Below are positions 1 through 20,495 of a stretch of DNA of 32,000 nucleotides, one piece after another. The translations under genes and the position numbers were made by a program. How positions within the stretch are numbered: position 1 is the first letter of the stretch; each line of letters begins with the position of its first letter. The notes below the pieces were generated by a model. The model saw only the letters and a list, made by a program, of their open reading frames with translations. It was not told the origin of the DNA and did not search any database. The DNA comes from Thermodesulfobacteriota bacterium. Lineage in GTDB: Bacteria; Desulfobacterota; WTBG01; JAGOGO01. The stretch is taken from NCBI GenBank assembly GCA_026625185.1, contig CP113000.1, positions 1,845,622 through 1,877,621 of the forward strand. The letters run 5' to 3'.

Positions 1-1503
1 TATCAGATCGCGTCGGGAAACTTTTCCGGTTGAGGTTTTTGGCAAGGCGTCACGCGATTCTATTATTTTGGGAACCTTGAAATTTGCGAGATGCTCCCGG
101 CAGAAAGCAAGCAGCGCTTTTTTATCGAGCCGTTTTCCCGGTTTCAGCACCACGACCGCTTTGATCGCCTGTCCCCGGTCTTCATCCGGAATCCCGACGG
201 CTCCTGCCTCGAGGATGTCGTGATGTTTCAAAAGAACATTCTCCACTTCCGCGGGAAAGACATTTAAGCCCCCAGTAATAATCATATCGTCTTTTCTTCC
301 CAGGTGGTAGACAAAACCGTCTTGATCTATCTTTCCCAGATCACCGGTATGGAGCCATCCATCCTTAATCATCTCCTGGGTGTCTTCAAGGCCATTATGG
401 TAGCCCTTCATAACCATAGGCCCCTTAACAACGATCTCCCCGACCTCTCCGGGAGCAACTTCCTGGTCATTGCCGTCTAAGAGCCTTAATACTATCTCCG
501 GCACGGGGAGGCCGATGCTTCCCATCTTGGTGTCGGCATAGTCAAGGGGCAAGAGCGTTATATAAGGCGAAGTCTCAGTAAGACCATATCCCTGGATGAC
601 CTTTACTGTGGGAAAAGCGTGCCGGAATTCTTGCATCAGCGGCAAGGGGACATTTGTCCCCATCATGGAGACATAAACCAGGCTTTTTAAGTGGTATCGT
701 TCGGGATGGGGCACGCGCAGAATGGCCTGAAAAATCGGCGGCACGCCGAAAAAATAGGTTACGCCAAAGCGGTCAACTTCTTCGAGAATGCGATCCGGCC
801 GGAGATTTTCAAATAACACGATGGTTGAACCATTGAGGGCGATCATGTTGGATATGATGGGACCGGAAATGTGGGAGAGGGGGATGATGAAGCCAATGAC
901 GTCATCTTCTCCTGCACCGACCATCCGATTCATGGTAAGCGGGTAATAATCCAAGTTCTTAAACGTGAGCACGACCCCTTTAGGCTTTCCGGTGGTTCCG
1001 GAGGTATAGAGGTAGAGTGCCTCATCCGCTTCATCAATCGCGACTTCCTCCAATCTTGTTGGGACATCCTCGCTTAAGAGAGCTTCTAAGCGAAAAGTTT
1101 CCGGGTGTTCGCCTTCAAAAAGCACCACCGTATGGAGCAGTCTCCGCGCCGCGCCTAAATCAGATTCAATTTCCACAAATTTATCCTTTAAGGTAAAGAG
1201 CGCTTTAACGTCCGCATCCATCAAGACGGAGAATAATTCATCTCCTTTAAAACGAAAGTCGAGCGGCACTCCGATTGCTCCCAGCCTGATTATCCCAAAG
1301 TAAATGATTATGAACTCGGGGATATTAGGGAAAACGATTGCCACGCGATCTCCCTTTTTGATTCCGCGGCGTGAAAGAAAAGTTGCCACCCGGTCAGCCC
1401 TCAGGTCAAGCTCGCTAAAAGTGAAAGACTTATTTCCAAAGATAACAGCCTTCTTATCCGGCAGTCGGGAAGCGGTTTTTCGTAGTACTGTTCCGACATT
1501 CAT
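1..1503 (-). CDS. AMP-dependent acyl-CoA (or acyl-ACP) synthetase, fatty-acid--CoA ligase family; the 3' end leaves the window by a few codons
   Basis: Absent from the ORF track because it is open at the left edge. The rc ATG is at 1503-1501, preceded by AGGTGA. My translation begins MNVGTVLRKTASRLPDKKAVIFGNKSFTFSELDLRADRVATFLSRRGIKKGDRVAIVFPN. The in-frame AMP-binding P-loop YTSGTTGKPKG lies at 1008-976. The last codons in the window read LPKTSTGKVSRRDLI, the usual C-terminal motif of this family. Confidence 0.9.
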   Translation of the reverse strand, partial: MNVGTVLRKTASRLPDKKAVIFGNKSFTFSELDLRADRVATFLSRRGIKKGDRVAIVFPNIPEFIIIYFGIIRLGAIGVPLDFRFKGDELFSVLMDADVKALFTLKDKFVEIESDLGAARRLLHTVVLFEGEHPETFRLEALLSEDVPTRLEEVAIDEADEALYLYTSGTTGKPKGVVLTFKNLDYYPLTMNRMVGAGEDDVIGFIIPLSHISGPIISNMIALNGSTIVLFENLRPDRILEEVDRFGVTYFFGVPPIFQAILRVPHPERYHLKSLVYVSMMGTNVPLPLMQEFRHAFPTVKVIQGYGLTETSPYITLLPLDYADTKMGSIGLPVPEIVLRLLDGNDQEVAPGEVGEIVVKGPMVMKGYHNGLEDTQEMIKDGWLHTGDLGKIDQDGFVYHLGRKDDMIITGGLNVFPAEVENVLLKHHDILEAGAVGIPDEDRGQAIKAVVVLKPGKRLDKKALLAFCREHLANFKVPKIIESRDALPKTSTGKVSRRDLI

Positions 1504-1561
1504 AATTCGCTCACCTTTCGTAAAAAAAAGCTTAAACCAAACGCCAATAATAAAATAAAGG

Positions 1562-1607
1562 GATTGGGAACCTCAGGAATATACATGCAATTCATAAATT
1601 CCCAATC
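1562..1607 (-). other. Inverted repeat in the 155-nt gap between the OM-barrel gene and the ligase gene (possible terminator, attenuator or processing hairpin)
   Basis: GATTGGGAA (1562-1570) pairs with TTCCCAATC (1599-1607). The 28-nt interior contains GAAT...ATTC. On the minus strand it is followed by CCTTTATTTTATTATT. The loop is large for a canonical intrinsic terminator. Confidence 0.25.
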
Positions 1608-1658
1608 ACTCGCTGAGCACATTTGTCACATTTGAAAAGTTAACGCTAAGACAACCAG

Positions 1659-3140
1659 TTAAAAGCCGTATTTAATCTCACAATACACCTCATCATTGTC
1701 CCGGAATTCACCGAGAAGGGTTCCCCGTTTTCCCCAGAACATATGACCGCCTACGGCGACATTCAGGTAGTCCCTGACCTCGTACTCGATCCGGGGCGAT
1801 ATTCTCCACTCGTTTAGCGTTCCGTACATGAACAGGCAATCGGGCTTGATTCTTTCATGCATGAAGTCAGTGGAGATTCTGGTGGTTAAAAAGGTATAGT
1901 ATTTATTGAGTCGGGCATTGGTCGGACCAAAAAGAAGATTATTCCCATTTTCGCTGGTTTTGTTTGTCACGAGTTGGATGAACTGAAAACTGGCCAGCCA
2001 GTTGGTCACAATGTATTTATCGATCCCGAGCACGTACTTATAGTTATCCACTTTGGTAATTCCGTAATAGATAGCCTTAGTTGGTACGGAGTAAGGGTAG
2101 AAAGGAACAGATATATAGTCCTTAAGCCACAACCCTTCAGTCTTGTTATTGTTGTTGTGGATATAGGCAAACTCTCCACGGACGGTGGTTCCGGTTAAGG
2201 GGCCGCTGTTAATACCTTTAGTAAAGGTAAAGCCAAGGAGTTGGGTCATAGGGTATTTATACTTCAACACATAATCTCCTTGGTAAGGTCCGTTTGTAAA
2301 TTGCTGAGGACCCAAATTAGAGATATGGACGTTTCCTGCAAACGTGCCATAACCGTGGAGGTAGTTGAGAGTATATTCGAGCCCATTGGGAAGAATGTCG
2401 AGCCACCGCACGCCGAAGGAAGAATTTTTAAAGCTCTGACCAGGGTACTGGTGATTTTCATCAAACGTGTAATGCCCATTTGATGCTAATTGGTGTAATG
2501 GATCAATGAGGTCCTTTTGGAGGAGGGTAAAGGAATAGTAGGTAAAGGGCGAGCCGGCAGGCGCGTAGTAGTCGGTTTCAAAATCCGGTATAAAGAGAAA
2601 CTGGAGAGTACCGTTGACCTTTGGAGAATATTCAATCTTCAGCATCCACCGGGGAATCCTGCTGTCCGCATAGTTATCGAGAAGATACTCTCTCTGGTCA
2701 GTAGGGCAGACCACATCCATAATCTTGATGCCATCGGCAGTACCCCACACCACCTGCTGTTTCCCAATCCTGACATCCAGGCTGGGTGATTCGTAGTTTA
2801 GGTAACATTCCCTGAGCCAGTCAGTACCCCGGGTGCGGTGAAGACGGCTCCGGTTATCTTCGAACAGAGGATTTACATCAAAAGCATTGTCATAGAAATA
2901 ACGAAAAATAGTGAAAAAACTGAATCTGTCATTAAGCATGTACTCAGCTTCAAGCTGGAAGGTGTTTTCGATCTTCATGAACTCACGGTCATGATTGGGG
3001 TTATAGGCGGTCTCATTCTTTAAAAATCCGGAGAGGGTTAACTTATTATCCAGCAAAGAAAGAGATGCCTGAGCAACCTTAGCGCTGCTCAGTAACAGGA
3101 GACATGCTCCGGCAACAAATAAAGCGATCGATTTCCTCAT
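1659..3140 (-). CDS. Outer-membrane beta-barrel protein, DUF1302-like
   Basis: 493-aa ORF with signal peptide MRKSIALFVAGACLLLLSSAKVAQA. The sequence is aromatic- and Gly-rich with an alternating pattern. The C-terminus is ...CEIKYGF, with the terminal Phe typical of OM barrels. It resembles the DUF1302 family (from memory), which normally pairs with LolA-like/DUF1329 proteins. Confidence 0.6.
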   Translation of the reverse strand: MRKSIALFVAGACLLLLSSAKVAQASLSLLDNKLTLSGFLKNETAYNPNHDREFMKIENTFQLEAEYMLNDRFSFFTIFRYFYDNAFDVNPLFEDNRSRLHRTRGTDWLRECYLNYESPSLDVRIGKQQVVWGTADGIKIMDVVCPTDQREYLLDNYADSRIPRWMLKIEYSPKVNGTLQFLFIPDFETDYYAPAGSPFTYYSFTLLQKDLIDPLHQLASNGHYTFDENHQYPGQSFKNSSFGVRWLDILPNGLEYTLNYLHGYGTFAGNVHISNLGPQQFTNGPYQGDYVLKYKYPMTQLLGFTFTKGINSGPLTGTTVRGEFAYIHNNNNKTEGLWLKDYISVPFYPYSVPTKAIYYGITKVDNYKYVLGIDKYIVTNWLASFQFIQLVTNKTSENGNNLLFGPTNARLNKYYTFLTTRISTDFMHERIKPDCLFMYGTLNEWRISPRIEYEVRDYLNVAVGGHMFWGKRGTLLGEFRDNDEVYCEIKYGF

Positions 3141-3165
3141 TTTTCGTTCCTCCTTTCTTTCCTTT

Positions 3166-4101
3166 CTACCATTTGGTCCGCATCAGCGCTTTGGGTGACA
3201 AAAGCTTTTCATCCACCCCGCTGTTAAACCTAATCCATTCGATTTCAACTGCAGTGGTATGATTTGTTCGGTGGTCAACACATTCCACATAGTTCATCGG
3301 GATGCACCCATTATCGCGTATTTCATACGTCCTGAGGATGTCTTTAAATTTTTTGCCATTGGGATCAAAAACATCATCGTGGACTTGAGCGCCAATATCT
3401 TTAGGAATAAACAAAGTTCGCCTTGAATAATACCACGGCTTACGTTTTGGTGTTGCTTCTACTACCCAACTGGGTGTATTTTTATAATAGGTCTTTCCGG
3501 TGTACTGAGAGGTATAGCCTGCAAAGGTGGCATCTTCTTTTACAAACTTATACGTTTCACTACTCCAGTTGCGGGTGGTCAATTCCTCAGTGGTGAGGTC
3601 TGACCCAAACGCAGCATCATCATCTTCCGCAGGCGATGCTCGGCGGATTTTTCTCTGACTGGGGAGCCAGATCCAGTTATCGCGCTCCCGGTTGGGGTCG
3701 AGGTACATCCAGGTAAGCACTGCCAGACCTTTGATATGCTGAGGTTCGGTTAGCACGATCAGATCCTTATAATCAAGTCCATCCTTTTCCAGAATGACCC
3801 GATAACGTTGCCATTTACGGGTCCGCTTAAGGCCGCTTCGGTCAATCATGACAAAATTCCCCACGCTCTCCTGGTCTTTAGCAAACTTAGTATATTTTAT
3901 AATATACTTAATTTGCATCAGGTTGTTCACATCAATGCCTGGATAAAGGTTTACTTTTTTGCAGCAGGTGGAGCAATCAACCGGAGCAGGTAGTAAGAGT
4001 GGTCTTTCTTCAGCGAAAGCTGGTTTAGTGTTCCCGCCTCCGAAAATTAAACCTACCAGCATGATGATGAGAAAGAATGGTAACAGTTTCAGCTTCATCA
4101 T
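3166..4101 (-). CDS. Periplasmic LolA-like outer membrane lipoprotein-sorting family protein
   Basis: 311-aa ORF with signal peptide MMKLKLLPFFLIIMLVGLIFGGGNTKPAFA. The block KGLAVLTWMYLDPNRERDNWIWLPSQRKIRRASPAEDDDAAFGSDLTTEEL matches the W-Y-LP-x-RRVRR...GSDF-x-EDL signature I recall for the LolA_like/DUF1329 group. GGAGGGAG lies upstream of the ATG. Confidence 0.65.
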   Translation of the reverse strand: MMKLKLLPFFLIIMLVGLIFGGGNTKPAFAEERPLLLPAPVDCSTCCKKVNLYPGIDVNNLMQIKYIIKYTKFAKDQESVGNFVMIDRSGLKRTRKWQRYRVILEKDGLDYKDLIVLTEPQHIKGLAVLTWMYLDPNRERDNWIWLPSQRKIRRASPAEDDDAAFGSDLTTEELTTRNWSSETYKFVKEDATFAGYTSQYTGKTYYKNTPSWVVEATPKRKPWYYSRRTLFIPKDIGAQVHDDVFDPNGKKFKDILRTYEIRDNGCIPMNYVECVDHRTNHTTAVEIEWIRFNSGVDEKLLSPKALMRTKW

Positions 4102-4255
4102 CTCCCTCCTTTTCTAAAGTTGATAATTTAAAAAATTTAGTTATGCCTCCTTACCTTCCTCAATCGGAAAAATAAAAAAATGAGAAATATTTTTAGCACC
4201 CCTCCTTCTGTCAACGTACAAAATTTTTACCTCTTCTTCTTGCTGGTGAAAAACT

Positions 4256-5260
4256 TTATTGGATTTTAACCTCTTTAAAAAGCGCAAAAAGCCGAGTAAA
4301 CGGTAAGTACCAGCGGGTGAGTTTTGTTAACTCACCCTTTAATTCCATCTTTTTTTGGGTGGTGGCCACAAAGGGGTCGAGTTTTCCAAAAAAAATCTGC
4401 TGCCAGATTTCCCGGGAAGCAGAGATTACAAAAGGAGCCTCACCAGCTTCATCAAGACCGTCTATCTTTCCTTTGACAAAATGAAACGTATATGCTTTTC
4501 CTGCTTCGCTGGCAAGCATGATTGCGAGGTCAACGCTTAGATCAAACTCAGCGCCTAATTTCCTAAAGGATTCATCGTTGTTCACCAGATCAACAATTGC
4601 CTCCATATGAGGCAAGGAAAACATCTCATAGAAAACCGCAGAAGAAGGTGAGAGGTCTTTTTTCAACTCTTCCTCAAAAGGATTCAGAGTTTCTTTTTTA
4701 AAAAGCCTGGCTACCCCGGCCATCCTCACCGCCTCTTCCAGACTTTCAATCAGATAAAAGGCCTCAGTAAAATTTTCTCCCATGGAGACCACACCATGAT
4801 TCTTCATTGCAACTAAATTGTTCATTTTAAGGGCATCAATAACTTCTTTGGGATTGGTTACACTGGGGGTGAACTGTTTTACTGCCGGAATCTGGCCTAA
4901 GAAAAGTTTGGTTTCAAAGGTTAAGATTTCTAGGTCATCATATACGGAAAAATAGGCATTGGTAAGAGGAGGGTGGCAGTGGATCACCCGGTTAATCTTG
5001 CTGAAATTTTTATAAATGAGACTATGCAAAGGAAACTCGGTAGAAAGACTTTTATTCGTGCAGTCAGCAGAGTTGGTTAAATCAACCGTGATAATATCTT
5101 CTTCTCTCAACTCACCCAGACTTACTGAGGTGGCAGTGATAAGGATTGTATCCTGCGCAAGACGGGAGCTCAAATTACCCCCACGGGCGACTGCCAGGCG
5201 GAGGTCATAAAGTTTTTTCCCTAATCGAATAATTTCTTCTTTTAGGAATTTTTCTTCCAT
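4256..5260 (-). CDS. Class II aldolase/adducin-family domain (MtnB/Ald2/FucA-like) fused to a C-terminal SCP2 sterol/lipid-binding domain
   Basis: 334 aa. The N-terminal ~200 aa carry class II aldolase hallmarks (GGNLSSRL, VIHCHPPLTNAY, MKNHGVVSMGENFTEAF). The C-terminal ~100 aa (AYTFHFVKGKIDGL...FFGKLDPFVATTQKKMELKGELTKL) match the SCP2 pattern GKL-x-P-x-AF-x-GKLKIKG. The start overlaps the upstream stop by 1 nt. Confidence 0.75.
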   Translation of the reverse strand: MEEKFLKEEIIRLGKKLYDLRLAVARGGNLSSRLAQDTILITATSVSLGELREEDIITVDLTNSADCTNKSLSTEFPLHSLIYKNFSKINRVIHCHPPLTNAYFSVYDDLEILTFETKLFLGQIPAVKQFTPSVTNPKEVIDALKMNNLVAMKNHGVVSMGENFTEAFYLIESLEEAVRMAGVARLFKKETLNPFEEELKKDLSPSSAVFYEMFSLPHMEAIVDLVNNDESFRKLGAEFDLSVDLAIMLASEAGKAYTFHFVKGKIDGLDEAGEAPFVISASREIWQQIFFGKLDPFVATTQKKMELKGELTKLTRWYLPFTRLFALFKEVKIQ

Positions 5261-6198
5261 CAGGAGATTCTCAGATAAATATGTCTGGTAATCAATGCTG
5301 CCGGGGTGATGTCAAAAGCGGGGTAATAGCCTTTCACTTCCTTTGGGGCAATTCTTTGGCCGGCAATGGTTAAGAGCTCTTTATCAGGTCGTATTTCAAT
5401 AGCAATATCCTTTCCGGTTCCGGCGTTTGACGGGGGGGGCGCCAGAACATAGAAGGGGATTTTAAATTTTCCGGCTAACAGGGCGATCTGATACGTTCCG
5501 ATCTTGTTGGCAATGTCTCCGTTGCGGGCAAGCTGGTCTGCGCCGGTGATTACTTTATTGACCAAACCTTCCGCAAATACATGGGCGACCGCACTGTCGG
5601 GAATGATGGTCACGTTAAATTCCGCTCTCTGGAGTTCCCAAGCCGTTAACCGCGAACCCTGAAAATAGGGCCTGGTTTCAGTAACAAAAAAGCTTATATG
5701 TTTTTTTTGTTTTCGGCAAAACGCCCCTATCAAAGGTAAAAGCCCGCTTACATTGCAGTGGGTAAGGATGACATCTCGGTCTTCAAAAAGCGCGCCGGCT
5801 GCCTGCGCTTGTTCGATCCGTTTAGCTTTAAGAAATTCCAAGAACCCTTTAATATTTTTTTCTACGGTAGAAGGTTCTTTTCCCCAGTCCAAGACCATGT
5901 CCGTTAAAAATTTAAACGGTAACGTGGGCCGGGTGGCATTGAGACTTTTAGCAATGAGGCTGAGGGTTGGTAAAAGCTTTTTCTCCTCCTTAATGCGTCT
6001 TACATAAAGCAGAAACGTGTAGAAAACCAGAAGCACCTGGCCGATAGCGCGGGTCTTCATGCTTTTTATCGCCCGACACGCCTCCTGATAATTTTTTATT
6101 TTAAAGTAAATGAGGCGTTGGGGGAGCTTGGTCTCATCAAGCGCCGAGATCGTCTCGCCTTTAAGCTCGACCGGCCAGAAAAGCGGAGAAAAATCCAT
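5260..6198 (-). CDS. eIF-2B alpha/beta/delta-family sugar-phosphate isomerase (5-methylthioribose-1-P / 5-deoxyribose-1-P isomerase-like)
   Basis: 312 aa. Motifs are VILTHCNVSG (compare THCNTG) and TGADQLARNGDIANKIGTYQIALLAGKFKIPFYVLAP (compare GADRIAANGDTANKIGTY), as in MtnA-type isomerases. It abuts the phosphorylase gene with no gap. Confidence 0.8.
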   Translation of the reverse strand: MDFSPLFWPVELKGETISALDETKLPQRLIYFKIKNYQEACRAIKSMKTRAIGQVLLVFYTFLLYVRRIKEEKKLLPTLSLIAKSLNATRPTLPFKFLTDMVLDWGKEPSTVEKNIKGFLEFLKAKRIEQAQAAGALFEDRDVILTHCNVSGLLPLIGAFCRKQKKHISFFVTETRPYFQGSRLTAWELQRAEFNVTIIPDSAVAHVFAEGLVNKVITGADQLARNGDIANKIGTYQIALLAGKFKIPFYVLAPPPSNAGTGKDIAIEIRPDKELLTIAGQRIAPKEVKGYYPAFDITPAALITRHIYLRIS

Positions 6199-6948
6199 TT
6201 ATTTTCCTTCCAGGTTTTTAACCGTTTGAAGAGCAATTTGAATGAGCTTTGTTTCCGCCATATAGTAGAGGGGGTTCATAAAACCCATCTCTCCGGTAAT
6301 CACATTATCGCTGACCGCCAGGATAGAAGCCGCCTTGACGTTATAAAGTTGGCTGATGGTAAGGAGGCACGATGAGACCATATCCACGGCGATCGCTCCT
6401 TCTTTCCGCTTTGCTTCGACAACTTCCCGGGTTTCCCGGAGGAGGGCATCCGTGGTCCAGACTTTGCCGGTGTAAACCTGCGACCCCATTCCTTTAGCTA
6501 CCTCGATGAGGGTGTCAGTAAGTTTTTTATCCGGCGTGGTTATAAATTTTTCATCAACATAATAAGGCGTTACCCCATCACCCCTGATAACGCTATCCAC
6601 CACAACCAAGTCTCCGACCTGCATTTTTTCATCTAAGGCACCACAGGTTCCGATCCGGATGATGTTTTTTATCTCCGCGTTACAGACAACCTCAGTGGTA
6701 ATGGCAGTATCCGCGCTGAACCTTCCGCCATTGATGGTGGTGATTTTCATCCCGTCGTATTCTCCGGTATACATGGCGTATTCCATAAAGGAAAAATTTC
6801 GCATCGCATCTTTCAATTTTTTAATCAGCACCTCCATCCGGTCTTTTGGTCCGGGAATGATGGCCCATTCTCCCACATCCTGGGGCCTTAACTGCACCAT
6901 GTCCGTTAGTTCTTTGCCGGTTAAATGGATCGGTTTCTGCATCTCCAT
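6199..6948 (-). CDS. Nucleoside phosphorylase, PNP_UDP_1 family (purine/uridine/MTA-type)
   Basis: 249 aa. The block NIIRIGTCGALDEKMQVGDLVVVDSVIRGDGVTPYY and the later AVDMVSS are typical of hexameric DeoD/Udp-type phosphorylases. Substrate is not inferable from sequence alone. Confidence 0.75.
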   Translation of the reverse strand: MEMQKPIHLTGKELTDMVQLRPQDVGEWAIIPGPKDRMEVLIKKLKDAMRNFSFMEYAMYTGEYDGMKITTINGGRFSADTAITTEVVCNAEIKNIIRIGTCGALDEKMQVGDLVVVDSVIRGDGVTPYYVDEKFITTPDKKLTDTLIEVAKGMGSQVYTGKVWTTDALLRETREVVEAKRKEGAIAVDMVSSCLLTISQLYNVKAASILAVSDNVITGEMGFMNPLYYMAETKLIQIALQTVKNLEGK

Positions 6949-6949
6949 G

Positions 6950-14363: not shown

Positions 14364-15628
14364 TAGTTCTTATACCTTTTTATAATGAGAGAAGAATGAA
14401 TGCCTGAAAATCCACTGCTGGTCTTCAAAATAGTATCAACCTTTTTTTCCCGAGAGCAATTCGGGATATAGTCCAAATCGCAAAGCGGATCGTTCTTTAC
14501 CTGGTTGATGGTCGGCGGAAGCAGATTCTTTTCAAATATCATCGCGCCAATAACCAACTCAACCGCGTTCGCTGCCGCGAGGGGGTGCCCGATCATAGAT
14601 TTCATAGAGCTTATCGGCAGCTTATACGCATAGTCGCCAAAGACCATTTTGTAGGCGTTAGTCTCAAACACATCATTCATGCGCGTGGAAGAACCGTGGG
14701 CATTAATATAATCGATTTCACCAGGCTGCAGGTCCGCATCTTGAAGGGCTAATCTGATGCAGTCAGCCATCGCTGTGCCGTCCGCGGGTAGGTCGGTCAT
14801 ATGAAACGCGTTACAGCTGGTGCCGAATCCGGCTACCTCACAGTAAATCTTCGTTCCCCGCTTCAGTGCATGCTGGAGTTCTTCCAAAATTAAGATTCCA
14901 GCTCCTTCTGATATAACAAACCCATCCCGATCATTATCAAAAGGCCGGCTGGCAGCTTCGGGATCATCATTACGCGCAGAAGAGAGGACATTAACGACAT
15001 CAAAGGCGCCAAAGGTAATTGGAGTAATGGGGGCTTCGGCCGCTCCGGTAATCATGATGTCCTGCTTGCCGTCCTGAATTACTTCTAACCCATAACCCAA
15101 TGAATCGGTTCCCGCGGTACATCCGGTCGACAAGGTGTTACAGATTCCCTGAAACCCGTATTTGCTTGAAACCTCGATGGACGGAGTATTAAACATGGCG
15201 GCGTCATAGAGGTCAGGTCTGACCTTGGAGGGGTCAATGGGATTTTTCCCATTATCGGTCACAAAGGAAAACTCTTCCTCCATATACTTGGTGCCGCAAA
15301 TGGCATTGGCTAAACAGACGCCAATCCGCTCAGGATCTTCGTGCGCAAAATTAAGACGGCTGTCTTGGTAGGCCATTTCGGCCGCTACCACGGCAAACTG
15401 AACATATCGATCCATCCGCATGGCGTCATCATGAGTCAGACCATAGTTAAAGGGGTCAAAACCTCTTACCTCAGCGGCAATTTGCGATTTAAACATGGAT
15501 ACATCAAAATAATCTACTTTTCTTACTGCCGATTTTCCTGAAATCATGGCGTCAAAAGCTCTGTTCTTGCCGATTCCATTGGGGGAAATTACGCCGATTC
15601 CGGTAACGACTACCCGTCTTTTTTTCAT
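14363..15628 (-). CDS. Beta-ketoacyl synthase, type II PKS KS-alpha-like (FabF family)
   Basis: 421 aa. The active-site Cys lies in LSTGCTAGTDSLG (compare VSTGCTSGLDAVG of type II PKS KS-alpha). The His residues lie in CNAFHMTD and INAHGSST, with KSMIGHPLAAA also present. Confidence 0.9.
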   Translation of the reverse strand: MKKRRVVVTGIGVISPNGIGKNRAFDAMISGKSAVRKVDYFDVSMFKSQIAAEVRGFDPFNYGLTHDDAMRMDRYVQFAVVAAEMAYQDSRLNFAHEDPERIGVCLANAICGTKYMEEEFSFVTDNGKNPIDPSKVRPDLYDAAMFNTPSIEVSSKYGFQGICNTLSTGCTAGTDSLGYGLEVIQDGKQDIMITGAAEAPITPITFGAFDVVNVLSSARNDDPEAASRPFDNDRDGFVISEGAGILILEELQHALKRGTKIYCEVAGFGTSCNAFHMTDLPADGTAMADCIRLALQDADLQPGEIDYINAHGSSTRMNDVFETNAYKMVFGDYAYKLPISSMKSMIGHPLAAANAVELVIGAMIFEKNLLPPTINQVKNDPLCDLDYIPNCSREKKVDTILKTSSGFSGIHSSLIIKRYKN

Positions 15629-16221
15629 TGGTCTTTTACCTCCTCAATTCTAGTGACTTTAAAAACAATATTTCCATTATCCGGGCAGGTAACGGTATCG
15701 ATACTATTGGGGTTATCCATAAAGAAAAATTTTGCTCCAAAGTTAAGCGCAAAAAGAGCCGGGAAGGCGGTATGAAAAGCGGCCCCGCAGAATTCCGGTA
15801 TCGCTTTAAGTCCCACGGTTTCAAATTTATCTCCCAACTTATATCCATAGTGGCAACTTCCTTTGGCTTTAACCACTTCAAGTACCATCTTTTTGGGCTG
15901 CGGCCCTTGATACGTTGGGTCTTTTGGAATAACCTCAACGTGGCCTTGTCTATCCAGAATCTCAGCAAGAAACTCGAGTTTCCCTCCATCCGGACAGGTT
16001 AAAGTTAACGAACGCTGGTTATCACGGAAAGGAAACCGGGCCCCAAAGCTGATCGCATAGATGACCGGGAAAAGCACATGAGCTAAGCCTAAGCAGAAGT
16101 ACTGAGGTGGATGCGTAAAGTCTTCGAGAATAAGCTCATCGCCCACTTTATAACCGTGATAACAATCTCCGTATACATTGAGTACCGTAAGTTTTAATTT
16201 TGGAAAAGGTGTATCAAACAT
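15625..16221 (-). CDS. Tandem-duplicated TIGR04076-like Cys-rich protein
   Basis: 198 aa made of two ~85-aa halves. Both halves share G-x-C-x-x-GYK-x-GD ... FC ... FP ... FGA-x-F-x-F-x-DN ... TCPD-x-G. AAGGA lies upstream of the ATG. The 3' end overlaps the KS-alpha start by 4 nt. Confidence 0.6.
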   Translation of the reverse strand: MFDTPFPKLKLTVLNVYGDCYHGYKVGDELILEDFTHPPQYFCLGLAHVLFPVIYAISFGARFPFRDNQRSLTLTCPDGGKLEFLAEILDRQGHVEVIPKDPTYQGPQPKKMVLEVVKAKGSCHYGYKLGDKFETVGLKAIPEFCGAAFHTAFPALFALNFGAKFFFMDNPNSIDTVTCPDNGNIVFKVTRIEEVKDQ

Positions 16222-16286: not shown

Positions 16287-17291
16287 TCAGGGAATTAGTT
16301 TTTCGGTTTCTGCTAATAATTTTTCCTTGCTGAAAAAAGTATTAGCGCGTTCAACTTCGTGCACCATCTCAACCAATTTTTGGTTCAGCGGCGATTCTAA
16401 CGCATTTTCTTTAGCCAGGGTGATGAATTCTCCGTTGATGAAATCAATTTCCGAAGCACGGCCCCGCTTGATGCTTTGTAATATTGACCCATAGAGGGGC
16501 TCTTTACTTAAATTAATCATAATCCCTGAAAATATTTTAGCTGCTTCATCAATTGGCATGGCGGTTAAACCACCCAGGCGCTCCAGAGGAAAGTCGGGCA
16601 ACGACGTTAAGGTAACGTTCGATTTGGTTACGATACCCAATCCCTCTTTCCAGATGCCGATGCTGATGCGGCTTACGCTGGGATCGGCGAATGCTTCCTG
16701 CATGCTCATCCCTAATATGGCGGGGATGCAGTTATTGGCATTAACAAAGATCTTGAGATATTTCATTCCCCTGATATCATCAGTGATGATGGTGGGAAAA
16801 ATGTTATTGAGCAGCGCTTGCAGCGCATTGACCGAGCTGTCATTAGGTCCAAACATCTTGCCGATGATCCAGTCGCCGTCAAAGTTATGGATAACCTTTC
16901 CTTCTTCTAAAGAGGTCGCGCCAAACATGACGATACTGGAAATAGTATTTTCCACGGGGAGGTGGTGAGCAACAAGCGAATCAGCGCGAACCCCATTTTG
17001 CGTCGTGAGCAAACACGTTTCTTTTAAAAAAGCAAGGTTATCTTTGAGGGCTTCTTCTACGTCCTGAGTTTTAACCGCGAGAATAGCGACGTCCGGCTTC
17101 TCCCGCAGGCGCTCACTGACCTCAAGATTAACGCGTGTTTCTCCCCGTGCTCCGGAGATCAGCAAGCCGTTTTTTTTGATCATTTTCACCGTGCGCGGGC
17201 GACCAATCAAATACACCGTTTCATTGTTAAGTGTGAGGTATCCGGCGGCGACATTGCCGATCGCCCCGGCACCGATGACCGCGATCTTCAT
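16287..17291 (-). CDS. 2-dehydropantoate 2-reductase family (PanE/ApbA) NAD(P)H-dependent ketoreductase
   Basis: The Rossmann start is MKIAVIGAGAIGNVAAGYL. The C-terminal block SILQSIKRGRASEIDFINGEFITLAKENALESPLNQKLVEMV matches the family signature. I prefer the ATG at 17291, which abuts the upstream stop. The tracked start at 17324 would overlap the upstream gene by 32 nt. Confidence 0.8.
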   Translation of the reverse strand: MKIAVIGAGAIGNVAAGYLTLNNETVYLIGRPRTVKMIKKNGLLISGARGETRVNLEVSERLREKPDVAILAVKTQDVEEALKDNLAFLKETCLLTTQNGVRADSLVAHHLPVENTISSIVMFGATSLEEGKVIHNFDGDWIIGKMFGPNDSSVNALQALLNNIFPTIITDDIRGMKYLKIFVNANNCIPAILGMSMQEAFADPSVSRISIGIWKEGLGIVTKSNVTLTSLPDFPLERLGGLTAMPIDEAAKIFSGIMINLSKEPLYGSILQSIKRGRASEIDFINGEFITLAKENALESPLNQKLVEMVHEVERANTFFSKEKLLAETEKLIP

Positions 17292-17292
17292 T

Positions 17293-17562
17293 TTACTTGG
17301 GGAATCCATATTTCTTATAATCAAATCCCGTGTGATCCAAGAGCCTCACCATCATGCTGTAGAATGGTTTAGGCACCTCTGAGAAAAAGGCGCTGATCAC
17401 ATCGTGTTCTTCCACAATCTGAGAACCTCGTGATTGGGCATTTTCCTCCGCTTTTTTACTGGCAAAAACCTGCGCTAACCCCCGATGAAAGACCGGGAGT
17501 TTAGCGATCATGAGTTCGAATTTTTCCTGAGTAGTTTTTTTCCATTCCATCGTTTTACCCAT
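17293..17562 (-). CDS. Small PCP_red-like protein (PF08369-like helical domain)
   Basis: 89 aa. MEWKKTTQEKFELMIAKLPVFHRGLAQVFASKKAEENAQSRGSQIVEEHDV resembles the W-x-x-EA-x-x-L-x-KIP-x-FVR...AR-x-x-G...IT pattern of the protochlorophyllide reductase B C-terminal domain. This is recognised from memory only. It overlaps the MMPL stop by 8 nt. Confidence 0.4.
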   Translation of the reverse strand: MGKTMEWKKTTQEKFELMIAKLPVFHRGLAQVFASKKAEENAQSRGSQIVEEHDVISAFFSEVPKPFYSMMVRLLDHTGFDYKKYGFPK

Positions 17563-19921
17563 GGGCTAAAAGTGTCAATGATTCTTCCCGAAAAAGGAAA
17601 CGCGGCTTAATGATTCTTATAAAGATGGGTAGCAAAAAGAGAGCGGCCATCATGTTGATAAACAAAAGAGAGCCTAACGCTGCTCCCAGCTTTGCCTGGA
17701 GTTTAATGCCGGAAAAGAGCCAGGAGAGCACTCCGTTGCTGATGATCATGCCGGTGAAAAAAACCGCTTTTCCTGATGTTACGAGCGCTTTTTGTATCGC
17801 TCCTGAAAGGTCAGGGTTACCATGACCTTTCAGGATTTCTTCATGAATACGGGCCGCTATATAAATGCTGTAGTCAATACCTAAACCAATCCCCATGGCT
17901 GCTACCGGTAAGGTCTCAACGGTCAAGGTTACCCCTGAGAGTCCGAATATGCCGAAGGTGAGAATAATGCTGAATATCAGGGGAATAAAAAGGAACAAAC
18001 CGCCAATTAAAGATTGGAGCGCGACCGAAACCCTCAGCAGAACTAAAATGAAGACCAGAATAATATTGGAATACGTTGATTGTTTAATAATGTCATTCAC
18101 TGCTGCAGTGGTTCCGATGAGCCCGCCGGCAAGCTTAAACTCCGCGTTTCCGCTATTATGATTTTTTTTGATCCAGTCTTGCGTGGCAGCGATGGTTTTA
18201 TTGATGGTTGCCGCGCGATGATCTTTCAGGTCGAATTTGATATTGGCGTGCTTATAATCGGGACTCAAAACTGGGTCGAAGTCCCCGGGAAAACCGGAAA
18301 TTGAATAAAGGAATAAATATTCCGCAATCGTTCCGTCATTCTCGGGAATCTTAAAGGAGGCGGGGTTATTATTGTCCATGACGAAGTTAAGGCCCTTGAT
18401 ATAATCGGCTAAGGAAACAGCGCTTCCGATTTCCGGGAATCTGGTAACGAGATGGCGCTGGAGGGAATCCATTTCTTTAAGCACTCTCCAATCCAGCATG
18501 GCTTCATCCTTCTTGCCTTCGACAAAAATGTAATAAGGGTTTGCTCCGGTAAACTTTGCGTTGACAAACTTTTCCGCCATATTATACGGGGAATGAGGAT
18601 AAAGCGTGGCTGAACCTTCTTCGTTATCTCCGACCACGATCTGGGTTATCCCTTTTATTCCCAAAACAGTAAGGATGATAAAGAAGGCTAAAATGACATT
18701 TCTTCCCCAAGCATGTTTCCCGATTCCGGCAATCCGGCTAAGTATCCTGTCCACACTATTGGGCCGTTCCTCCCGCTCCACCTCCCTTTGTACGGGCACC
18801 GGAATATAGGTAAGGATTGCGGGTATAAAGGTAACGACTGTGAGATAGAGGCTGAAGACTCCGGCTCCCGCGGTAATGGCTAAGGTTTTGATCATGACTA
18901 GGGGAACAATCATGAGCGAAAGAAATCCCAAGCCATCAGTAAACAATGAGGCTCTTACGGGGTTTGAAAGCGCGGCCAAAGTATTCTCCGAGGCTTTTAA
19001 CCGGTCATGAGGATTGGCTTTGATTTCTTCATAATAGCGCTTGATGAATTGGATGGCGTGACTTATCCCGATCGCTAAGATGAGGAAAGGGACCAAGGTA
19101 GTCGTTGGGTCCAAATGGAAGCCTGAGAGGCTTAAGATTCCCAGCCCCCAGACCACTCCCATTAATGCCGCGGCAAAAGGAAGCAAAATTCCCCGCTTGG
19201 AACGAAACGCGAAGAACAGAAGAAAAACCATGATAAGGATCGTTCCCAAAAATACCGTCAGCAATTTGGGGAGATAATAATCGAGCCACCCTTCTAAAAT
19301 CGGCCGCCCGGCCAGATAGAATTTGGTCGTGCCGTCTTTTTCCTTCTCAATGATCTGGTTGAGTTGTTGAAATATTTTTTTGGAAGAAACCTCCGGATAA
19401 AAGTCCAAGACAATTTGTGTGGCCGAGAAATCATTGGCCACGATCGGTCCGTAAACCAGGTTATTTCTCATGATGGATTTTTTTAAAAACCCCATCTTTT
19501 CAGGTGTCGTAGGGGCCTCCCGCATCAAATGAGTTACTTTAAAACCTTCCTCCGTGCCTTCAACCCGTTTTATCTTCCGTGCGGATAGCGAAACGATTCT
19601 CCCGATATTAACCCCCTCGAGGTAGTAAAGCTGGTTGGTGATCCGTACCACTTTCTCCAGCAGAGCGGCTTGGAAAATATCACCTTCTTTTGGCTCTAAA
19701 GCAATGGAGACCTGATTAAGGCCGCCAAAAATTTTCATGAGCTGGTTATTAACCTCAACAAAGGGATGCTTTTGAGGAATAAAGTCCTGGACGCTGGTGT
19801 GAATGGTTAAATTTTTCAGGGTATAAAGGAAAAAAGCGGTAACCACTAAAGGGAAAAGGCTGAAAAACAAGCGGTGGCGGAGGACAAAGGTTGCTAATTT
19901 TGAAGAAGAATGATCAGTCAT
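17555..19921 (-). CDS. MMPL/RND-superfamily exporter (HpnN-like lipid transporter type)
   Basis: 788 aa with two blocks of about six TM helices, each preceded by a large soluble loop. The SSD-like block is VPFLILAIGISHAIQFIKRY and the second half has GIGLGIDYSIYIAARI. The start forms an ATGA overlap with the MarR stop. Confidence 0.85.
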   Translation of the reverse strand: MTDHSSSKLATFVLRHRLFFSLFPLVVTAFFLYTLKNLTIHTSVQDFIPQKHPFVEVNNQLMKIFGGLNQVSIALEPKEGDIFQAALLEKVVRITNQLYYLEGVNIGRIVSLSARKIKRVEGTEEGFKVTHLMREAPTTPEKMGFLKKSIMRNNLVYGPIVANDFSATQIVLDFYPEVSSKKIFQQLNQIIEKEKDGTTKFYLAGRPILEGWLDYYLPKLLTVFLGTILIMVFLLFFAFRSKRGILLPFAAALMGVVWGLGILSLSGFHLDPTTTLVPFLILAIGISHAIQFIKRYYEEIKANPHDRLKASENTLAALSNPVRASLFTDGLGFLSLMIVPLVMIKTLAITAGAGVFSLYLTVVTFIPAILTYIPVPVQREVEREERPNSVDRILSRIAGIGKHAWGRNVILAFFIILTVLGIKGITQIVVGDNEEGSATLYPHSPYNMAEKFVNAKFTGANPYYIFVEGKKDEAMLDWRVLKEMDSLQRHLVTRFPEIGSAVSLADYIKGLNFVMDNNNPASFKIPENDGTIAEYLFLYSISGFPGDFDPVLSPDYKHANIKFDLKDHRAATINKTIAATQDWIKKNHNSGNAEFKLAGGLIGTTAAVNDIIKQSTYSNIILVFILVLLRVSVALQSLIGGLFLFIPLIFSIILTFGIFGLSGVTLTVETLPVAAMGIGLGIDYSIYIAARIHEEILKGHGNPDLSGAIQKALVTSGKAVFFTGMIISNGVLSWLFSGIKLQAKLGAALGSLLFINMMAALFLLPIFIRIIKPRFLFREESLTLLAHG

Positions 19922-20394
19922 AATGCGTTATGCTCCGTGCCTTTTATCGGGGGGAAAGAAGCCATGGCTAAAAGACCGTGGCTGAATTTTTTAAGCAACC
20001 GACTCAATTGGCGCTGTTCTTCAAAATCAAGAATTCCCACAATTTCTTTCCATTTTTTTTGGAAGATGGGGAGAATATCCTTATGAAGTAAAATCCCTTT
20101 TGGAGTGAGTTTTGCTCGAATAATTCTCCGGTCGTCCTTGTCCCGGTCCCGATAAACGAATCCGCTTTTTTCCAAGCGGTCCATGACACCGGTGATGTTT
20201 CCTCCAGTGACCATGAGCCGTTCGCCGATTTCTCCGAGTGTCAACCCCTTGGCCCGGCCCAAACAAACCAAAATGTCGAGCTGGGGCAGGGTAAGGCTTT
20301 CTTTTTTCAAGGTTTTTCGAATCTCATGATAAATTAACTGAAAAGTCATGTTAAGTCTGACCCAGAGAATAGTGGGGCGAAAGGACTCGCTCAT
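19918..20394 (-). CDS. MarR-family transcriptional regulator, first gene of the operon
   Basis: 158 aa. The winged-helix core is LTLPQLDILVCLGRAKGLTLGEIGERLMVTGGNITGVMDRLEKSGFVYRDRDKDDRRIIRAKLTPKG. An alternative start is Met16 at 20349. Confidence 0.85.
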   Translation of the reverse strand: MSESFRPTILWVRLNMTFQLIYHEIRKTLKKESLTLPQLDILVCLGRAKGLTLGEIGERLMVTGGNITGVMDRLEKSGFVYRDRDKDDRRIIRAKLTPKGILLHKDILPIFQKKWKEIVGILDFEEQRQLSRLLKKFSHGLLAMASFPPIKGTEHNAL

Positions 20395-20436
20395 TCCTTA
20401 CCTTATTAAAATTATTAAGATTATTTAGTAGTTAGG

Positions 20437-20458
20437 AATATTTTATGGTTAAAATATT
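20437..20458. promoter_or_regulatory. 22-bp palindrome AATATTTTA-N4-TAAAATATT, candidate MarR operator
   Basis: The 9-bp arms are perfect (20437-20445 and 20450-20458). It lies between the putative -10 and the MarR start codon. The surrounding DNA is AT-rich, so a chance palindrome is possible. Confidence 0.3.
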
Positions 20459-20467
20459 AAGGTGTAA

Positions 20468-20495
20468 AGTTTATCATCCAAATGAGGTATGTCAA
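20468..20495 (-). promoter_or_regulatory. Putative sigma70-type promoter of the 21-gene operon
   Basis: On the minus strand the sequence reads TTGACA (20495-20490), a 16-nt spacer, then TAAACT (20473-20468). It lies about 75 nt upstream of the MarR ATG. Confidence 0.4.

Follow-up and report, generated by a model that had tools for sequence, protein, structure and literature searches.

We describe here a gene cluster carried on a stretch of 32,000 nucleotides from a Thermodesulfobacteriota bacterium (GenBank assembly GCA_026625185.1, contig CP113000.1, positions 1,845,622 to 1,877,621 of the forward strand). We call this whole stretch the window. The cluster joins a polyketide synthase (PKS) core to a B12-binding radical S-adenosylmethionine (SAM) enzyme, a predicted three-gene pathway for 5′-deoxynucleosides, and a set of transporters. 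With moderate confidence, we read it as a conserved, undescribed Omnitrophota cluster that reached this genome by horizontal transfer and makes a small aromatic polyketide without oxygen. What can be observed directly comes first, namely the gene content, the state of the active sites, the conservation of the cluster, and its nesting within Omnitrophota diversity.

Twenty-one genes on one strand

The open reading frame (ORF) listing and a junction script give 21 consecutive ORFs on the minus strand, running from 20394 to 1. Families were called by Pfam and NCBIfam profile searches of the window proteins. Presence is counted over 35 full-length loci in a tblastn matrix with a view of ±10 kb, which bounds the counts. 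From the first gene to the last, the run reads as follows.

19918–20394, minus strand: MarR-family regulator, first gene, accessory (Pfam MarR, 63.7 bits; 1 of 35 loci)
17555–19921, minus strand: MMPL/HAE3-type resistance-nodulation-division (RND) inner-membrane transporter, AmeD/HpnN-like, accessory (Pfam MMPL, 137 bits; 2 of 35)
17293–17562, minus strand: 89-residue DUF2621/PCP_red-like protein, core (DUF2621 19.6 and PCP_red 15.1 bits, both below cutoff; 30 of 35)
16287–17324, minus strand: NAD(P)H reductase of the ketopantoate reductase (ApbA/PanE) family (TIGR00745, 165 bits against a cutoff of 141; 32 of 35)
15625–16221, minus strand: double TIGR04076 protein, 198 residues in tandem (NCBIfam TIGR04076, 90.8 bits against a cutoff of 33, over two stretches; 33 of 35)
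14363–15628, minus strand: ketosynthase (KS)-alpha, KS_A, predicted active (triad Cys170-His276-His311; 33 of 35)
13125–14363, minus strand: KS-beta, KS_B, predicted inactive partner resembling a chain-length factor (CLF) (Cys replaced by Arg, second His by Asp; 33 of 35)
11668–13128, minus strand: radical SAM enzyme with B12-binding domain and the motif CPSACTFC (Pfam Radical_SAM and B12-binding; 35 of 35)
11402–11650, minus strand: acyl carrier protein (ACP) (Pfam PP-binding and NCBIfam ACP models; phosphopantetheine site DS36TE; 32 of 35)
10618–11415, minus strand: PF04199 "cyclase" with the kynurenine formamidase/isatin hydrolase fold (Pfam Cyclase, 115 bits; 33 of 35)
10155–10595, minus strand: SRPBCC aromatase/cyclase of TcmN/WhiE type, 146 residues (Pfam Polyketide_cyc, 24.1 bits, above cutoff; 33 of 35)
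9028–10119, minus strand: MFS transporter (Pfam MFS_1, 129 bits; 31 of 35)
8253–9026, minus strand: short-chain dehydrogenase/reductase (SDR) ketoreductase, YxxxK (Pfam adh_short, 173 bits, and a KR-domain match; 33 of 35)
7861–8256, minus strand: 131-residue protein of no family (no Pfam or NCBIfam match; 13 of 35, one sub-clade)
6950–7864, minus strand: Amidohydrolase_2 protein of the non-oxidative aromatic decarboxylase group (by PDB matches; 34 of 35)
6199–6948, minus strand: PNP_UDP_1 nucleoside phosphorylase, DeoD/Udp-like (Pfam, 121.8 bits; 27 of 35)
5260–6198, minus strand: MtnA-type (IF-2B family) 5-substituted ribose-1-phosphate isomerase (TIGR00524; 34 of 35)
4256–5260, minus strand: class II aldolase, FucA/DrdA-like, with a C-terminal SCP2 domain (Pfam Aldolase_II 122 and SCP2 23.3 bits; 32 of 35)
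3166–4101, minus strand: LolA-like/DUF1329 periplasmic protein, AmeB-like, accessory (Pfam LolA_like 94 and DUF1329 58 bits; 1 of 35)
1659–3140, minus strand: DUF1302 outer-membrane protein, AmeA-like, accessory (Pfam DUF1302, 67 bits; 1 of 35)
1–1503, minus strand: AMP-forming acyl/aryl-CoA (or -ACP) ligase, last gene (Pfam AMP-binding, 302 bits; 3′ end beyond the window edge)

The genes are packed tightly. The junction script finds ATGA overlaps at 19918–19921, 15625–15628, 13125–13128, 8253–8256, and 7861–7864, and a TAATG at 14363. Three gaps are larger: 65 nt between the ApbA and TIGR04076 genes, 154 nt between the aldolase and LolA-like genes, and 155 nt between the DUF1302 and ligase genes. 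At every other junction, the two genes either overlap or lie no more than 35 nt apart. This is the layout the original prediction had described, down to its overlaps and its three gaps of 65 to 155 nt, and Pfam and NCBIfam reproduced every one of its family assignments, the class B radical SAM enzyme, the TIGR04076 protein, and the trio resembling the dihydroxyacetone phosphate (DHAP) shunt among them. In none of the 21 ORFs does either library find a dehydratase, thioesterase, acyltransferase, glycosyltransferase, or ammonia-lyase domain; the prediction was thus right that dehydratases and an ammonia-lyase are missing relative to aryl-polyene clusters.

The spacing of the genes suggests co-transcription as one operon. 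Promoter-like sites in the window number 27, against 28.6 expected from shuffling, and terminator-like sites 37, against 25.8 (sd 6.8), a modest excess; both scans are uninformative on operon structure. A terminator scan of the three larger gaps found no convincing minus-strand terminator, and Rfam and tRNA scans of the window returned no riboswitch and no tRNA.

An aromatic-type polyketide core with an unusual partner

A type II PKS-like core was the heart of the original prediction, and it has held up well. In PDB searches, KS_A scores 390 bits against the anthraquinone KS AntD (6SMO_B) and 385 against the KS-alpha of actinorhodin (Act) synthesis, versus 351 for the best FabF, 282 for the anammox protein amxFabF2 (9S5H_B), and 222 for Iga11, a polyene KS. 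By these alignment scores, KS_A looks closer to aromatic KS-alpha subunits than to FabF, and it does not appear to fall in with housekeeping FabF, as the original prediction required. Its triad, C170/H276/H311, is conserved in 56 of 56 orthologues.

The gene for KS_B overlaps that of KS_A by 1 nt, and its product aligns at full length with both FabF and the Act CLF in the PDB search. Where the catalytic Cys should be, 45 of 62 orthologue sequences have Arg and 17 have Lys; the second His is Asp in all 62. Because of these substitutions, we take KS_B to be an inactive, CLF-like partner, and one of an unusual kind. The Gln that serves decarboxylative priming in canonical CLFs is found in none of the 62, its place being held by Arg or Lys, so the starter unit is probably supplied separately.

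The remaining genes of the core fall into line. The phosphopantetheine Ser of the ACP (D-S-T-E motif) is invariant in 61 of 61 sequences. The small SRPBCC protein matches the TcmN ARO/CYC and WhiE structures over its full length (E = 3e-22, 82 bits). PDB matches of the Amidohydrolase_2 protein are to ACMSD and to the γ-resorcylate and 5-carboxyvanillate decarboxylases (E = 1e-22 to 1e-19). The PF04199 protein, with weak PDB matches to isatin hydrolase, is a candidate either for closing a second ring or for hydrolytic release. With a ketoreductase, an aromatase, a cyclase, and a decarboxylase around a minimal PKS, the gene logic reads as that of aromatic type II PKS clusters and not as that of fatty-acid-like, aryl-polyene, or ladderane systems.

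The radical SAM enzyme and the proteins that keep it company

The radical SAM enzyme is the most conserved protein of the cluster, and its CxxxCxxC motif (CPSACTFC) is invariant in 82 of 82 sequences. More than 120 database clusters match it at 73 to 93% identity, most of them labeled Candidatus Omnitrophota; the 100% match, on a contig of 3.3 Mb, is labeled Thermodesulfobacteriota. Its best-scoring curated families are BchE (TIGR02026, 219 bits against a cutoff of 481) and HpnJ (148 against 578), both matched over nearly the full length and both below cutoff, while the "ladderane" family TIGR04072 reaches 85 bits against 360. Among plasmid proteins, no match exceeds 29% identity, annotated BchE genes being 26 to 29% identical, and the solved structures of TokK, AprD4, and CysS are matched weakly. 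A search of 1.84 billion representatives placed the nearest outside relatives at 49, 47, 41, and 38% identity, after which scores fall from 354 to 268 bits. That drop marks the enzyme out as a discrete family.

The double TIGR04076 protein shares with it the highest conservation in the cluster. Its invariant residues are C20, H22, C43, H48, and C76 in the first repeat and C123, C145, H150, and C179 in the second, a pattern of C-x-H, C, H, C that the second repeat shares minus its first His. Because of the invariant Cys and His in each repeat, we regard the protein as a putative metal or Fe-S partner. Sequence searches of the PDB gave chance matches only, and Foldseek with an AlphaFold2 model of low confidence (pLDDT 66) found no PDB match below E = 0.1.

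Two further proteins belong with these. Orthologues of the 89-residue protein have precomputed DUF2621 matches, and its gene always lies upstream of the ApbA gene, the true start of which is likely at 17291. The genes for the radical SAM enzyme, the 89-residue protein, and the ApbA reductase adjoin each other even in the distant relatives L085 and L090 (the L numbers are our handles for individual loci). Identities between the window and the Omnitrophota locus L001 are uneven: 75% for the TIGR04076 protein, 74% for the radical SAM enzyme, 64% for KS_A, 61% for MtnA, 61% for SRPBCC, and just 33% for the MFS transporter and 33% for the ligase. Such unevenness indicates an old divergence with strong constraint on the radical SAM and TIGR04076 proteins, and not a recent sweep.

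A predicted 5′-deoxynucleoside pathway within the cluster

Phosphorylase, isomerase, and aldolase form a trio that abuts or overlaps the PKS tailoring genes, at junction spacings of 1, 0, and -1 nt. The trio is kept with the cluster and its radical SAM enzyme through at least three gene orders and across deep divergence. The phosphorylase scores 97 bits with Udp, 94 with DeoD, 56 with HpnG, and 17.7 with MTAP, all below the NCBIfam cutoffs. For the MtnA isomerase, TIGR00524 gives 194 bits against a cutoff of 185.85 and PRK05720 gives 232 against 271; the equivalog models score below their cutoffs.

The metal ligands of the aldolase (HxH, His, Glu) are retained and align with those of FucA in the PDB, and its AlphaFold2 model (pLDDT 89) finds FucA and DrdA, the 5-deoxyribulose-phosphate aldolase (6BTD/6BTG), as best Foldseek matches, at E = 1e-13 to 1e-11. 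The C-terminal 120 residues form an SCP2 lipid-binding domain (23.3 bits against a Pfam cutoff of 21.3); residues 211 to 317 match the PDB SCP2 entries 1WFR and 2CX7 at E of about 1e-4, and most of the 120 best homologues carry the domain as well. In 25 of the 35 loci, the aldolase gene is followed by one for a non-acylating aldehyde dehydrogenase (BADH-type, 537 bits), which is absent from the window copy and from L003.

For the chemistry of the DHAP shunt we follow published work (PMC10986504, PMC12632272, PMC8102628); many bacteria use the shunt as a general route (PMC10986504). In 11 Omnitrophota loci (L056 and 10 others), the region of the trio and the aldehyde dehydrogenase is followed downstream by a gene for an LsrF-like 3-hydroxy-5-phosphonooxypentane-2,4-dione thiolase (L056 15805–16617; NF006081, 361 bits against a cutoff of 297). 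Its substrate is the 4-keto form of 5-deoxyribulose-1-phosphate, which hints at a second, CoA-dependent exit from the 5′-deoxyadenosine pathway.

An Omnitrophota-type cluster in a Thermodesulfobacteriota genome

When one genome was scanned for each GTDB species, 130 genomes proved to encode a relative, nearly all of them Omnitrophota. The best 80 of these 130 are almost all Omnitrophota too, and they include a complete chromosome of 1.28 Mb. More than 40 independent genomes share this gene set. Its clustering is therefore not chance, and the neighborhood is conserved, as the original prediction needed it to be. Gene order is another matter. It is shuffled between sub-clades, so that the radical SAM gene may follow KS_B, follow the SDR gene, or precede those of the 89-residue and ApbA proteins, and the trio lies upstream or downstream depending on the sub-clade. 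Membership is retained throughout, and because it survives such differences in order, it is good evidence for functional coupling of the genes.

A neighbor-joining tree built on a concatenation of seven core proteins (2219 columns, 52 taxa) puts the window and L003 inside one large Omnitrophota clade. The GC content of the cluster is 45.7%, versus 54.2% for the efflux genes at 26.5 to 32 kb, and a search with the aldolase returned a graded series of Desulfobacterota-labeled sequences, from 100% down to about 66% identity. The nesting argues for horizontal transfer from Omnitrophota into the Thermodesulfobacteriota lineage, and the graded series for diversification within that lineage since; on these comparisons, both probably happened.

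The closest relative, L003 (93% identical), shares the upstream DegT gene (92% identical), lacks the MMPL, LolA-like, and DUF1302 genes, and retains the MFS gene as a remnant. Between L003 12982 and 15377, just the last 106 codons of that gene are left, and the 131-residue and Amidohydrolase_2 genes each fall into two tblastn pieces, which is either gene decay or assembly error.

At the far end of the diversity are two arrangements to which we return below. L086 and L087 carry a block of ligase, class I methyltransferase, radical SAM (45% by tblastn), phosphorylase, MtnA, aldolase-SCP2, aldehyde dehydrogenase, MMPL, and DUF1329/LolA genes, directly downstream of MTHFR and CODH/ACS (acetogenesis) genes. 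In L090 (GCA_040753015.1, 1–21446), there are two genes for B12-radical SAM enzymes, with 56 and 37% identity to that of the window, and three extra proteins (440, 120, and 64 residues), with no SDR, MFS, or trio gene in view. Its cluster is followed by genes for a molybdenum hydroxylase of the xanthine dehydrogenase family, XdhC, and molybdenum cofactor synthesis; the hydroxylase is another oxygen-independent hydroxylation system.

Omnitrophota loci have embellishments of their own. One sub-clade has a class IV aminotransferase/aminodeoxychorismate-lyase-like gene inserted between those for the decarboxylase and MtnA (L052 12394–13218; 12 loci), and the same sub-clade has a 158-residue protein of no family encoded between MtnA and the aldolase (L052 14107–14583; 9 loci), the L086 counterpart of which has a weak IF-2B match. 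Immediately ahead of the cluster, some sub-clades have a gene for AccA, the acetyl-CoA carboxylase carboxyltransferase alpha subunit, in 9 loci, and one for a PadR-like regulator in 10; L062 4024–5480 and L055 34–447 are examples of these upstream regions. A secreted protein with a CBM_11 domain is encoded after the SDR in 15 Omnitrophota loci. Two contigs bear other labels, Methanosarcinales archaeon for L060 and Patescibacteria group for L020. Both have a typical Omnitrophota-type cluster (radical SAM 73 and 81% identical, respectively) and are probably mis-binned. Mis-binning may also lie behind the published "archaeal" KS-CLF matches in Ca. Methanoperedenaceae (PMC10132072).

Regulator, transporters, and ligase

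A "21-gene operon with a lipid export module" was the picture we started from. As a description of the layout it stands; as a single evolutionary unit it does not, since the MarR, MMPL, LolA-like, and DUF1302 genes are accessory and the ligase is loosely linked. It is a mixture of a conserved core and lineage-specific additions.

MarR is confined to copies of the Desulfobacterota lineage; L003 has it and the Omnitrophota loci do not. The MMPL gene is seen only in the window, L072, L079, and L086, and its product scores 212 bits with the NCBIfam HAE3 model, below the cutoff of 352. LolA-like genes also occur in L004, L072, L086, and L091, and DUF1302 genes in L004, L072, and L091; in L004 and L091, the two are placed as in the window. 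In the Omnitrophota locus L072 and the distant L086, MMPL and LolA-like genes come directly after the aldehyde dehydrogenase gene. The MFS gene, by comparison, is usually present, though L003, L004, and L091 have at most a remnant of it. The export module, then, is accessory yet has been recruited repeatedly, which fits a hydrophobic product that crosses the envelope.

The export genes had been likened to those of aryl-polyene and flexirubin clusters. The better match is the AmeABCD HAE3 efflux cassette (PMC6394551), the source also of the AmeA-like role we give to the DUF1302 protein; cassettes of this type act on diverse hydrophobic compounds (PMC6394551). The ligase finds its best PDB matches in feruloyl- and fatty-acyl-CoA synthetases and is the terminal cluster gene in the relative L091 as well.

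A proposed pathway

From all this we infer a pathway, and with it each chemical step, the class of product, the roles of the partner proteins, and the direction of export. KS-alpha, its CLF-like partner, and the ACP would build a poly-β-keto chain from malonyl units, on a starter plausibly provided by the AMP-ligase. The SDR, the TcmN-type aromatase/cyclase, and the PF04199 cyclase/hydrolase would fold the chain and release it, partly reduced, as an aromatic acid, from which the ACMSD/resorcylate-type decarboxylase would take off the carboxyl group. The B12-domain radical SAM enzyme would then carry out an oxygen-independent C–H functionalization of the aromatic intermediate, perhaps a C-methylation or a BchE-like oxidation or cyclization, probably working with the double TIGR04076, 89-residue DUF2621-like, and ketopantoate reductase-like proteins. 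Meanwhile, the phosphorylase, MtnA isomerase, and aldolase would turn inhibitory 5′-deoxyadenosine into adenine, DHAP, and an aldehyde by way of the DHAP shunt. In the Thermodesulfobacteriota lineage, MarR and the Ame-type set of HAE3 RND, LolA-like, and DUF1302 proteins would have been added, and the export set and MFS pump probably move the hydrophobic product across the envelope.

Anthracycline and actinorhodin synthesis offers an attractive parallel. There, the combined action of a ketoreductase, an aromatase, and a DpsY-like cyclase leads to an anthrone, which aerobes oxidize with O2. It is purely speculative, and by analogy only, that a BchE-like enzyme might oxidize an anthrone with water.

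The original prediction was a cyclized or aromatic polyketide-type lipid. The aromatic polyketide survives; the evidence favors a small aromatic polyketide over a lipid. That product may have a conserved role in the physiology of Omnitrophota, for example as a polyketide quinone or electron carrier made without oxygen, rather than being a dispensable secondary metabolite.

Weighing the evidence

Several observations sit uncomfortably with an oxygen-independent aromatic polyketide pathway that has by-product salvage built in. Product, transcripts, and enzyme activities are all predictions from sequence, and host taxonomy from the labels of metagenome-assembled genomes (MAGs). The radical SAM enzyme belongs to no characterized family and matches solved structures weakly, so that its reaction is a guess; the TIGR04076 model is of low confidence and has no structural match. 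KS_B lacks the canonical CLF Gln. Monodomain cyclases of TcmN type normally act on unreduced chains, yet an SDR is present here. The phosphorylase resembles DeoD/Udp more than MtnP, every NCBIfam match being below cutoff. Plain salvage explains neither the SCP2 fusion on the aldolase, nor the aldehyde dehydrogenase that usually follows it, nor a ligase that is often near the trio; the ligase is within 10 kb in just 9 of the 35 loci. Finally, L086 and L087 carry the radical SAM enzyme, trio, aldehyde dehydrogenase, ligase, MMPL, and LolA-like genes with no KS on either contig, while L090 has the PKS and two radical SAM enzymes with no trio in view.

Some of these awkward facts would fit if the trio processed not free 5′-deoxyadenosine but a 5′-deoxyadenosyl adduct of a hydrophobic substrate, formed by or with the radical SAM enzyme as HpnH and MqnE form theirs, with SAM as a two-carbon donor (C5′–C4′). 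The phosphorylase would remove adenine, by HpnG-like logic, the isomerase would open the sugar, and the SCP2-aldolase would give DHAP and R-CH2-CHO. The aldehyde dehydrogenase would make R-CH2-COOH, and the ligase would load this acid, either as PKS starter or as an export-bound lipid. HpnH/HpnG, MqnE/MqnB, and the making of fluoroacetate from 5′-fluoro-5′-deoxyadenosine follow a similar logic. A lipid-binding domain on the aldolase in most homologues, a non-acylating dehydrogenase behind it, and a KS_B that needs a supplied starter all suit this idea, as does the contiguous ligase, radical SAM, phosphorylase, MtnA, aldolase-SCP2, aldehyde dehydrogenase, MMPL, and LolA-like block of L086 and L087. 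There is even an echo of hopanoid side-chain logic, with HpnJ the second-best family of the radical SAM enzyme, the phosphorylase weakly HpnG-like, and the MMPL protein weakly HpnN-like. Against it, the known adenosylating radical SAM enzymes, HpnH and MqnE, have no B12 domain, and we know of no class B adenosylator. The window copy and L003 dispense with the dehydrogenase, L090 has a PKS and no trio in view, the SCP2 score is marginal, and the LsrF-like thiolase of 11 loci, above its cutoff, fits the metabolism of small 5-deoxyribulose-1-phosphate. We consider an adduct unlikely, and worth keeping in mind.

Or the locus may be a composite in which a PKS, housekeeping salvage of 5′-deoxynucleosides, and a general efflux system for hydrophobic compounds merely lie side by side. 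The variable presence of the MMPL, LolA-like, DUF1302, MarR, and ligase genes would follow naturally, as would the promoter-like hexamers in the 154 to 155 nt gaps ahead of the LolA-like and ligase genes; the DHAP shunt is, after all, general in many bacteria (PMC10986504), and Ame-type cassettes are catholic in what they handle. We find this quite improbable. A mere neighbor would hardly be expected to stay through so many gene orders and such deep divergence, nor to sit within a nucleotide of the PKS tailoring genes, as the trio does, and several lineages (window/L004/L091, L072, and L086) have brought the export set into the cluster.

We judge it very improbable that the cluster belongs with fatty-acid-like or polyene lipid systems (aryl-polyene, flexirubin, or "ladderane", labels that antiSMASH is prone to give to KS plus radical SAM clusters in these phyla) and that its product is an outer-membrane lipid. 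This reading has its attractions: a KS pair, ACP, ligase, LolA-like, and MMPL genes occur together, as in aryl-polyene clusters; there is the SCP2 domain; and biosynthetic gene clusters are called as "ladderane" in Omnitrophota and Desulfobacterota MAGs (PMC9902471). Pfam, however, finds no FabZ/FabA, enoyl reductase, ammonia-lyase, acyltransferase, or phytoene desaturase homologue in the 21 ORFs. Together with the low scores of KS_A to amxFabF2 and Iga11, the failure of the radical SAM enzyme to approach the TIGR04072 cutoff, and the presence of a TcmN-type aromatase/cyclase and an aromatic decarboxylase, this leads us to reject the aryl-polyene and ladderane readings; the LolA-like and MMPL genes, moreover, are accessory.

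Weakest of all is catabolism of aromatics or phenolics, with ligase, decarboxylase, SDR, and PF04199 ring opening as in anaerobic phloroglucinol degradation and uptake by the MFS protein: PF04199, SDR, Amidohydrolase_2, and CoA-ligase families do occur in anaerobic aromatic degradation, and MarR and PadR regulators typically sense phenolics, but the idea is hardly credible for a cluster found even in a small Omnitrophota genome (the 1.28 Mb chromosome), and we reject it in view of three biosynthetic hallmarks, namely the ACP, the TcmN-type ARO/CYC, and the pairing of an intact KS-alpha with an inactive partner, and of the malonyl-CoA supply that AccA offers upstream in 9 loci.

Flanking DNA

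Upstream of MarR, the intergenic region (20395–21124) holds a 28-nt palindrome, ATCCCGTTAGAAAATTTTCTAATGGGAT in minus-strand reading, within 20538–20635, and in the same interval, a second inverted pair of the motif, CCCGTTAGA and TCTAACGGG, about 30 nt apart. A promoter-like pair, TTGACA...TAAACT, lies some 70 to 100 nt upstream of the MarR start. The palindromes at 20538–20635 are candidate operator sites for a cluster regulator.

Divergent from MarR is a gene for a Flavodoxin_2 NAD(P)H (quinone) oxidoreductase (21125–21709, plus strand; PRK09739-like, 119 bits). The pairing is reminiscent of quinone-responsive MarR/azoreductase regulons. As a member of the cluster we reject it; L003 lacks it, and L020, a distant locus, is the only one with a homologue nearby (30% identical, immediately upstream).

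Beyond it, the stretch 21819–25371 is low in GC (about 42%). It encodes a DUF6602 protein, an IS200-like Y1 transposase-related ORF (22967–23704) that overlaps the 3′ end of the DegT aminotransferase gene, and a 167-residue ORF (24868–25371) that starts like an NAD-dependent epimerase (GGCGFLGSHV), then loses similarity, and is probably a gene remnant. This content and a step in GC at about 26.5 kb suggest an island boundary. From 25706 to 32000 on the plus strand runs an efflux operon of TetR (CecR-like), AcrA, AcrB, and an OprM/NodT-type outer-membrane lipoprotein, at 54% GC; it is separate from the cluster, and its last gene runs past the window end.

Why the cluster matters

Type II PKSs are known almost entirely from aerobic actinomycetes, where tailoring is the work of oxygenases. 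Here an aromatic-type PKS is conserved across an uncultivated, largely anaerobic phylum, very small genomes included, with a cobalamin-type radical SAM enzyme standing where the oxygenases would and a 5′-deoxynucleoside pathway built into the cluster. Across deep lineages, the radical SAM and TIGR04076 proteins keep 73 to 93% identity, which speaks for a product of physiological importance and against an occasional antibiotic.

Once the cluster is solved, TIGR04076 and a discrete family of BchE-like radical SAM enzymes would each have a first function, we would learn how aromatic polyketides are finished without oxygen, and the SCP2-fused aldolase would serve to test for new SAM-derived carbon chemistry. 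Were adduct processing to prove true, carbon chains would be built here in a way not known before, one that extends the chemistry of hopanoid side chains, futalosine, and fluoroacetate, and the cluster responsible would be conserved throughout a phylum of nanobacteria that is poorly understood. The Desulfobacterota copy, with its added envelope export genes, is a more tractable way in than Omnitrophota.

Comparison with known systems

The literature searched on Omnitrophota, TIGR04076, anaerobic type II PKSs, and the DHAP shunt yielded no published description of this cluster, in keeping with the claim that the combination of genes is undescribed. A KS-CLF catalog lists pairs in Ca. Omnitrophica without further analysis (PMC10132072), antiSMASH makes the "ladderane" calls already mentioned, and the main Omnitrophota genomics papers do not mention the cluster.

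Anammox "ladderane" Cluster I (amxACP, amxFabZ, amxFabF2/amxFabFmut, PDH, and a radical SAM enzyme) shares a KS with an inactive KS partner, a dedicated ACP, a B12-type radical SAM enzyme, and anaerobic hosts. The window cluster fails the ladderane features tested (FabZ, PDH, and TIGR04072). It has neither FabZ nor a phytoene desaturase (amine oxidase/PDH) homologue, its KS_A scores much nearer to aromatic KS-alpha than to amxFabF2, its radical SAM enzyme is not a TIGR04072 member, and it has aromatase/cyclase and decarboxylase genes. BchE (the anaerobic Mg-protoporphyrin monomethyl ester oxidative cyclase) and HpnJ have the same domain architecture as that enzyme, which differs in falling far below their cutoffs, in its identity of about 26 to 29% to annotated BchE, and in its discrete family.

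AmeABCD of Castellaniella defragrans (PMC6394551) has in common with the window an HAE3/MMPL RND pump of about 788 residues, a DUF1329 LolA-like protein, and a DUF1302 protein; the co-fit DUF1302/DUF1329/RND sets of Pseudomonas correspond to the window export genes too. There are differences. No ORF for AmeC (BNR/COG4447) is present in window positions 1–20495, the export genes are split between both ends of the cluster, the LolA-like protein has 311 residues against 451 in AmeB, and the DUF1302 protein 493 against 605 in AmeA. The window set is tied to biosynthesis, whereas the Castellaniella cassette is tied to monoterpene catabolism.

With the DHAP shunt (MtnP or Pfs plus MtnK, MtnA, and Ald2; DrdK/DrdI/DrdA in B. 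thuringiensis), the trio shares its order of phosphorylase, isomerase, and class II aldolase chemistry and, in the aldolase, a fold like that of DrdA (6BTD/6BTG) and FucA. It differs in lying inside a PKS cluster, in a phosphorylase that is DeoD/Udp-like and not MtnP, and in the aldolase-SCP2 fusion; loci of the window type usually add a non-acylating aldehyde dehydrogenase and, in some cases, an LsrF-like thiolase.

The closest kin are the aromatic type II PKS clusters: Photorhabdus anthraquinone (antA-I), actinorhodin (act), and tetracenomycin/WhiE. Common to all are a heterodimer of KS-alpha and partner, an ACP, an SDR, a TcmN/WhiE-type SRPBCC aromatase/cyclase, and a second cyclase. The ant cluster has a CoA-ligase-type gene, as does the window cluster, and AntD and Act KS-alpha are the best solved relatives of KS_A. 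Unlike these systems, the window cluster has Arg or Lys in place of Gln in its partner subunit and no oxygenases; it integrates a B12-radical SAM enzyme, TIGR04076, DUF2621-like, and ApbA-like proteins, and a DHAP-shunt-like trio; and clusters of its type are hosted by candidate phyla of strict anaerobes. What sets it apart among aromatic type II PKSs is thus a discrete family of B12-radical SAM enzymes, an embedded 5′-deoxynucleoside pathway, an SCP2-aldolase, and a CLF-like partner with Arg or Lys at the catalytic position.

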